A stretch of DNA of 11,187 bases, taken from the IMG/VR virus record IMGVR_UViG_3300028584_001242. One strand, written 5' to 3'. Shown piece after piece: positions 2,294-2,450 of this stretch; positions within the stretch are counted from its first letter, which is position 1, and each line of letters opens with the position of its first letter. A program made the translations under genes and the position numbers. This stretch comes from a virus (taxonomy: Duplodnaviria > Heunggongvirae > Uroviricota > Caudoviricetes). The notes under the pieces are model-generated. The model made no database searches, was not told where the DNA came from, and was given only the letters and a program-made list of their open reading frames with translations.

Positions 2294-2450
2294 CAGAAAG
2301 GAGCCGACTCACCCAGCCGTTTTAATCAAAGCAAACCACACTTTAATTCCCCTCTCTACCGTGAGACAGAGATTGCTCTCATGTCTCGTTAGTGGCTTGC
2401 CCGCGACACCGCTGCCACCCAACCCACTTTTACGCAGGCTCCGAATTCTG
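2294..2450 (-). ncRNA. Putative structured non-coding RNA of unrecognised family
   Basis: GC-richer intergenic segment with closing stem CAGAA/TTCTG plus GGAGCC/GGCTCC around three hairpins: 2388-2423, 2363-2387 (GCAA tetraloop) and 2324-2348. Folded by eye only. Confidence 0.5.

Follow-up and report, generated by a model that had tools for sequence, protein, structure and literature searches.

Unexplained stable RNAs have been annotated in the tRNA clusters of phages T4 and T5 for decades, GOLLD RNAs are often located near tRNAs, and theta ribozymes lie 3' of a tRNA. The T4 molecules rnaC and rnaD (species 1 and 2; NC_000866, 70908-71171) and the T5 molecules RNAI, RNAIII, RNAIV and RNA2H (NC_005859) are non-coding, are encoded amid the tRNA genes of a large mobile genome and have a length of 100-170 nt, ends that probably pair and no assigned function. 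Other orphan structured RNAs of mobile elements include GOLLD and ROOL, large ornate RNAs of phages and prophages (bioRxiv 10.1101/2024.12.08.627333), and the HDV-like theta ribozymes are small structured RNAs beside phage tRNA genes (PMC10879173). Candidate RNAs from IMG/VR, 8495 in number, are reported by Fremin et al. (2023; PMC10690425). For megabase elements of Enterobacteriaceae, a recent description (bioRxiv 10.1101/2025.09.30.679422) discusses tRNAs, and the terms 'ncRNA', 'Rfam' and 'ribozyme' occur nowhere in its text.

The RNA described here is of the kind known from T4 and T5 and shares with these molecules all of the properties just listed. In contrast to them, it is multi-copy and possesses its own promoter, a portable 3' module and a new fold; covariance models R1 and R2, run with filters off on the tRNA regions of T4 and T5, gave no significant match. 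GOLLD and ROOL are several times larger, and neither of these two Rfam families was matched. Unlike theta ribozymes, the RNA is located 5' of the tRNA, and it has neither an HDV-type nested double pseudoknot nor an Rfam match of the HDV type. In this family, natural variation suffices to fix the fold, several paralogs are present per genome and one domain is swapped between RNAs. The locus almost certainly encodes a functional ncRNA, and it appears to represent a real, undescribed family, a domain of which may be present without annotation among the 8495 candidates of PMC10690425.

The window (the whole stretch of 11,187 nt, IMG/VR record IMGVR_UViG_3300028584_001242) had received an initial annotation in which an unrecognised 157-nt multi-stem RNA at 2294-2450 was taken for a new ncRNA, ribozyme or riboswitch family in a mobile genome. 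All letters quoted there are found on the minus strand of this interval, no ORF is conserved among copies, in agreement with the lack of a credible ORF reported there, and the proposal that a mobile genome carries a new family of ncRNAs is borne out by covariation, by an own promoter in most copies and by the giant phage- or plasmid-like contigs that carry them. The source contig of the window's proteins comprises 1,851,360 bases, its relatives span 1.84-1.92 Mb, and the element thus exceeds described phages by far in size. The genes of the window are small and phage-like (e.g. a Lar-like protein), the best distant protein matches, at 31-37% identity, are to jumbo phages of Caulobacter and to Vibrio megaplasmids of 0.9 Mb, and the same two groups provide the top matches for the ATPase and CinA-like proteins of the element and a close relative. 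Partial relatives are classed as viral in IMG/VR, terminase, DotI and TROVE genes were not found in five partial records, which are fragments, and the element may be giant phage-like or megaplasmid-like, as judged from partial records. The sequencing runs that contain its DNA carry the labels food, groundwater and freshwater metagenomes. Within single records, the RNA is repeated: a 437-kb record holds three full copies with domains A and B plus one lone 3' module (B), four other records each hold two full A+B copies and one extra 3' module, and three copies fall within the tRNA-rich 375-393 kb part of G001. The direct 3' neighbour of a copy can be tRNA-Cys (locus L037) or tRNA-Met/Ile (L087). 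These little-known elements of 1.8-1.9 Mb are suggested to hold an extensive RNA repertoire. The following features were assigned to the locus:

2476..2504, minus strand: sigma-70-type promoter (-35 TTGCTA, 17 nt, extended -10 TG-n-TAGAAT)
2282..2448, minus strand: whole structured RNA of ~167 nt, composed of domain A, optional Pc and module B (alignment of 21 distinct copies)
2441..2448, minus strand: 5' strand of candidate helix P0, which would close the RNA by pairing with 2289-2282; the AU-rich sequence also resembles an RNase E site
2421..2440, minus strand: hairpin Pa of domain A, 7 bp, with a freely varying stem and a 6-nt loop with invariant final A
2391..2419, minus strand: stem Pb of domain A, with 6 bp, an internal loop, a 2-bp GC/GC helix and a G-rich apex
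2363..2387, minus strand: optional, variable hairpin Pc, with a GCAA tetraloop in the window's copy
2293..2359, minus strand: module B, a three-way junction of P1, P2, UAAAA junction strand and P3
2359-2349/2303-2293, minus strand: P1 of module B, homolog-supported
2347-2341/2331-2325, minus strand: P2 of module B, AUUAAAG/CUUUGAU
2324-2320, minus strand: near-invariant junction strand UAAAA of module B
2319-2315/2309-2305, minus strand: P3 of module B, 5 bp with RGRYG loop
2282..2292, minus strand: 3' tail AACC-UAAUUU, candidate P0 3' strand and/or processing site
2116..2271, minus strand: tRNA-like gene with large D-loop insertion, context outside the RNA and probably co-transcribed
2070..2109, minus strand: intrinsic terminator predicted to end the transcript

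On the minus strand, the order is therefore promoter (2504-2476), RNA, tRNA-like gene (2271-2116) and terminator (2109-2070). Transcription is predicted to start near 2469, and the Lar-like gene reaches into the promoter, its stop codon overlapping the -35 box. Similar promoters are located 16-27 nt 5' of the RNA in L007, L021, L036 (both copies), L037a, L087 and L094. The ends of the RNA are placed near 2448 and 2282 from sequence, and the whole molecule is bracketed by GAAUU..GG at the 5' side and CC..AAUUU at the 3' side. Pairing of these words into the closing helix P0 is plausible but weak, with 89% of cells paired and a double change in one pair only. RNase E prefers RN/WUU sites. The AU-rich flank words fit this preference and may thus be kept as processing sites; the 3' tail AACC-UAAUUU is missing after both stand-alone B modules (L093 and L113).

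Homologs were gathered via neighbouring proteins and DNA patterns. The alignment of the full RNA contains 21 distinct copies (70% mean column identity) and that of module B 24 distinct copies (62%), drawn from only ~8 independent lineages. In thermodynamic terms, the 157-nt stretch is more stable than shuffled sequences (z -2.88, 4/200). Across the 21 copies, Pa (7 bp), Pb (6+2 bp), P2 and P3 are paired in 502/504 cells (99.6%), compared with 18-45% of cells in slid controls, and double-sided compensatory changes are present in 14/24 core pairs, which was matched by no shuffle. At least about 18 separate compensatory events can be counted from the distinct Watson-Crick types per pair, so the covariation signal does not stem from one inherited change. 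The same helices were recovered unaided by RNAalifold. Pa is 100% paired with double changes in 5/7 pairs, and the outer stem of Pb, a hairpin that had already been proposed as GGUGGC/GCCACU (2419-2414 with 2396-2391), is 100% paired with double changes in 6/6 pairs. For module B, double changes occur in 18/24 pairs (24 distinct copies; 0/500 shuffles). When anchored at the junction, P1 extends over 8-11 bp in most copies, is bulged in some and shows double changes in 11/12 pairs. Folding of 2453-2277 returns an MFE structure of -63.8 kcal/mol that equals the homolog-supported comparative fold.

Comparison with this fold revises part of the initial annotation. Its AUUAAAG/CUUUGAU hairpin is P2 and is supported by covariation, and its GAGACA/UGUCUC hairpin corresponds to Pc, which is real in the window's genome but differs in sequence and length among copies, does not keep the GNRA loop and is absent in two of them (L037a/b). 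The proposed closing helix CAGAA..GGAGCC/GGCUCC..UUCUG had to be abandoned: only 76.9% of cells pair, its covariation score was equalled by 144/500 shuffles, and its probability drops to 0 once 17 more 3' bases are folded (2453-2277). This helix, which competes with both Pa and P1, arose because the sequence had been cut at 2294, a 3' boundary that falls short of the end near 2282. Pa (2440-2421), P3 (2319-2305) and P1 (2359-2349 with 2303-2293) had been overlooked, and the 5' strand of P1 had been described as a purine-rich linker. A pseudoknot GCCUGCG/CGCGGGC was considered and rejected, as it is not conserved in the L036 copies and its 5' strand belongs to Pa; no pseudoknot helix of >=4 bp that is conserved and compatible with the covarying fold was found.

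The stems are free to change, and the invariant or near-invariant letters comprise a GGA 5' of Pa, the A that ends the Pa loop, the Pb apex AGCGGYG-N(2-4)-RGGCRA, GAU-UAAAA-C at the junction and RGRYG in the P3 loop. The junction strand reads UAAAA in 23/24 copies and UAACA in one, and the 14 invariant positions of module B cluster at the junction. Freely varying stems combined with invariant loop and junction letters form the pattern of a binding surface, and the invariant junction letters would suit a catalytic or ligand-binding core as well. Type C three-way junctions possess lone-pair triloops closed by a U-A pair, e.g. 23S U1082-A1086 and domain V of the HAV IRES (PMC2952862, PMC6689051). 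Module B shares with them a 5-nt A-rich U..A strand, two other strands of 0-1 nt and the same A-U/U-A pairs adjoining the junction strand; it thus has the sequence features of a type C junction, and the flanking helices covary. By analogy with PMC2952862 and PMC6689051, a coaxial stack and A-minor contacts can be proposed for module B. The type C junction is a building block and not a family; its arms and loops differ from those of B, and the covariance model score on 23S is not significant. Since the UAAAA strand fits such a lone-pair triloop, it is probably architectural, and binding would then be likely to take place at the P3 loop and the Pb apex.

Domain A (Pa and Pb) is always followed by module B, and B also occurs without A. 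Tandem duplication of B was observed in L008-17, L027-29, L036, L048, L051, L076 and L086. In L113, module B is fused behind an unrelated promoter-driven ncRNA domain, and in L093 it follows a 44-aa gene as part of the 3' UTR, between stop codon and terminator; the family of this gene is repeated within the window, there without B. Module B is therefore a portable 3' module that is also present on other RNAs. A further A+B copy at L086:1141-1320 has a degenerate B (31 bits, P3 loop changed) followed by unrelated DNA and is probably a decaying paralog or a recombination scar.

Read depth over 500-4500 was compared in four runs, with contig depths that derive from relatives and paralogs and carry no information on ends or strand. 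In run X15 (wastewater, presumed RNA-seq), depth reaches 1800-2000 over 2242-2509 and drops to about 700 for the bin that covers the tRNA-like gene; it amounts to 150-230 across the Lar region, 115 (100-130) over one copy of the repeated ~44-aa gene and 0-35 elsewhere, which places the RNA about 100-fold above neighbouring genes. Depth in the DNA-like runs X17 and X18 stays level at about 0-40, and run X20, on record as RNA, has a depth of 2-11 that is too shallow to show enrichment. These depths hint at a high abundance of the RNA.

Rfam 15 gave no match at 2282-2450 even at E<=5, the outcome that a new family would predict, nor on the diverged copies in L086, L087, L094, L098, L099, L102 and L113. 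The covariance model R1 (module B) scores 58-90 bits on the copies. Outside the collected loci, blastn of the region found no match in phages, plasmids and E. coli genomes, and the module B pattern matched GTDB genomes four times, in all cases without the surrounding fold, with three matches rescored by R1 as not significant. A further 400 genomes of one class gave no match either. Under stricter filters, neither domain was present in the replicons that supply the best distant protein matches, namely Vibrio, Variovorax and Methylorubrum megaplasmids, CcrColossus and a 636-kb phage. Matches of the domain A pattern in prophages of 45-50 kb (L114-L129) were discarded as Walker A codons and not RNA. 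At the motif level, the hammerhead word CUGANGA (0/21 copies; the junction strands measure 1, 5 and 1 nt), CR-I (GAGGAAAGUC) and CR-V (ACANAANCNGGCU) of RNase P RNA (each 0/21), the T-box motif (0/21) and YrlA-type Y RNA motifs (0/21, with no TROVE gene in the five partial records) were not found in the copies. The RNA thus fits none of the catalogued families tested. Two resemblances of other kinds were dismissed: complementarity of the A apex to E. coli tRNA-Glu (12/14) is lost in L036b, L087 and L094 and is attributed to chance, and a 16S h23 look-alike (GUAGCGGUG) matches in the 5' strand only.

The RNA is a stand-alone ncRNA gene, with a two-domain fold, a promoter-like site in most copies and independence of both neighbours. 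Its position directly upstream of the tRNA-like gene was described correctly for the window, although this arrangement is not obligatory: L007 contains the RNA without that gene and with other RNAs in its place, and L021 contains it without the Lar-like gene. As the RNA persists without either neighbour, it does not serve as a leader for them. A riboswitch, one option of the initial annotation, or another cis-regulatory leader acting on the gene downstream could be argued from the location between promoter and downstream gene and from the aptamer-like conserved core. Such a role is very improbable, because what follows the RNA is not conserved and mostly non-coding (it can be a tRNA or tRNA-like gene, a further ncRNA, another copy of the RNA or a short ORF), neither a terminator/antiterminator nor a ribosome-site switch is present as an expression platform, and B also occurs downstream of an ORF.

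CsrB/RsmZ-type sponges and type III antitoxin repeats are abundant trans-acting RNAs in which repeated modules bind one protein. The reading favoured here, tentatively and at somewhat less than an even chance, is likewise that of an abundant trans-acting, protein-binding RNA. The parallel is one of function only, as the present module is a 70-nt junction and, in contrast to these RNAs, GGA hairpin loops and a linked toxin gene are absent; the sole invariant GGA runs into stem Pa, and ANGGA occurs in only 10/21 copies. According to this model, a precursor would be transcribed by the host RNA polymerase, and cleavage of its AU-rich flanks by a host enzyme of the RNase E type, together with RNase P cleavage at the downstream tRNA, would release a stable RNA of ~167 nt. 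Module B would fold as a type C three-way junction in which the UAAAA lone-pair triloop makes A-minor contacts, allowing the 5-bp P3 hairpin to present its RGRYG loop at a fixed geometry, and the RNA would act in trans through protein binding. B could serve as a reusable handle (docking site and 3' stabiliser) attached to several RNAs of the element, and the invariant G-rich apex of domain A as the working surface, through which a host factor involved in translation, RNA decay or defence would be titrated or recruited. The tandem B copies suit a multivalent binder; a co-occurring binder protein was not found, since neighbours differ between copies. It is unlikely that module B constitutes a portable tag, or a new catalytic RNA class, on several RNAs of the element including an mRNA. 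If it were a tag, one factor could recognise, protect or process 'self' RNA, and the A+B RNA would belong to a toolkit of modular ncRNAs that the element encodes. Function can be tested directly on the 70-nt module.

RNase P, through its GGU motif, and T-boxes pair with the tRNA 3' end. Several other roles can be weighed against a trans-acting, protein-binding RNA. Module B might merely be a cis-acting 3' end stabiliser or processing signal against 3'-5' exonucleases, its compact junction blocking these enzymes after RNase P or RNase E has removed the downstream tRNA, so that domain A alone would be functional. This proposal is in line with the constant position of B at the 3' side of its RNA, including the 3' UTR in L093 and the second ncRNA in L113; it is nevertheless unlikely, because in both of these loci an intrinsic terminator within few bases already protects the end, and an invariant 5-bp hairpin whose loop is conserved would be superfluous in a mere barrier. 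That B, or A+B, forms a new class of self-cleaving ribozymes that trims tRNA-cluster precursors, comparable to theta ribozymes in gut phages, draws on its compact, portable, often tandem and tRNA-adjacent nature, on the clustering of the 14 invariant positions at the junction and on the precedent of tRNA-linked phage ribozymes (PMC10879173). The ribozyme option raised in the initial annotation is nonetheless improbable: no known core motif (hammerhead, pistol or RNase P), no Rfam ribozyme match and no conserved pseudoknot of >=4 bp is present, a known structural motif accounts for the junction letters, and the distance from B to the next tRNA is variable. Mimicry of 23S rRNA, with the A apex resembling helix 13 and the B junction the H42-H44 GTPase centre, would let the RNA act as a decoy that captures ribosomal proteins or defence enzymes directed at the ribosome. 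The A apex pattern YAGCGGYG..GCRA has a single match in the rRNA of E. coli, located in helix 13 of the 23S molecule (a post hoc chance of about 0.025), and each strand of the B junction can be aligned with a counterpart in 23S, namely G1055-U1058, A1080-A1086 and C1102-C1104. Set against these likenesses, which may both be common building blocks, neither covariance model is significant on rRNA (best 4.8 bits, E 8.8), B has no H43 and H44 loops (A1067/A1095 loops) and no kink-turn (Kt-42) in P1, and the A stem pairs in Watson-Crick fashion where H13 contains a loop E motif, leaving a decoy of this type with a low probability. Finally, the GGYG present in both conserved loops of A and B could base-pair with the 3'-terminal RCC of tRNAs or tRNA-like RNAs, which would thereby be held or protected. 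In favour of this idea, one can cite the location among tRNA genes and the 3-bp GGU/ACC complementarity with the tail of the RNA itself (86% Watson-Crick); with only 3 bp available, one B loop reading GGAUG and a Y that does not track the discriminator base of the adjacent tRNA (L087 and L037), such binding is very improbable.

Additional elements were observed around the RNA genes. The tRNA-like gene at 2116-2271 (minus strand) was missed by ARAGORN and contains a conserved multi-hairpin insertion of ~83 nt in its D-loop; its anticodon arm varies freely among relatives, and it is therefore probably not decoding. Other tRNA-like RNAs that end in CCA and have large insertions or unusual arms surround A+B genes and were missed by ARAGORN at the settings used:

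L076:12640-12825: CCA-ended tRNA-like RNA
L036:6860-6965, minus strand: CCA-ended tRNA-like RNA
L048:455-530: CCA-ended tRNA-like RNA
L086:640-780: CCA-ended tRNA-like RNA

A second conserved non-coding motif, GUGGAGCGAU..UGACCUU..GAAGCGAUGAC, is found near the RNA, without a credible Rfam match on the loci scanned:

L007:5646-5735: second non-coding motif
L094:900-990, minus strand: second non-coding motif
L076:13564-13649: second non-coding motif
L036:5482-5568: second non-coding motif
L051:4412-4485: second non-coding motif

The promoter-driven structured RNA domain of L113 (1385-1470), which precedes module B and a terminator, has no second copy among the collected loci. Three repeats of a unit composed of promoter, gene for a helical protein of ~44 aa and terminator are located on the minus strand of the window (3386-3634, 6873-7121 and about 9650-9885), and the homolog with module B in its 3' UTR is at L093:1643-1780. 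The Lar-like zinc-finger gene (2498-2725, minus strand) has a counterpart in L018:4001-5482 that is followed by a T4-type RNA ligase 1 gene instead of the RNA. The acetyltransferase-like gene at 2923-3387 (plus strand) occupies a swappable slot that contains DUF6900 or is empty in relatives.
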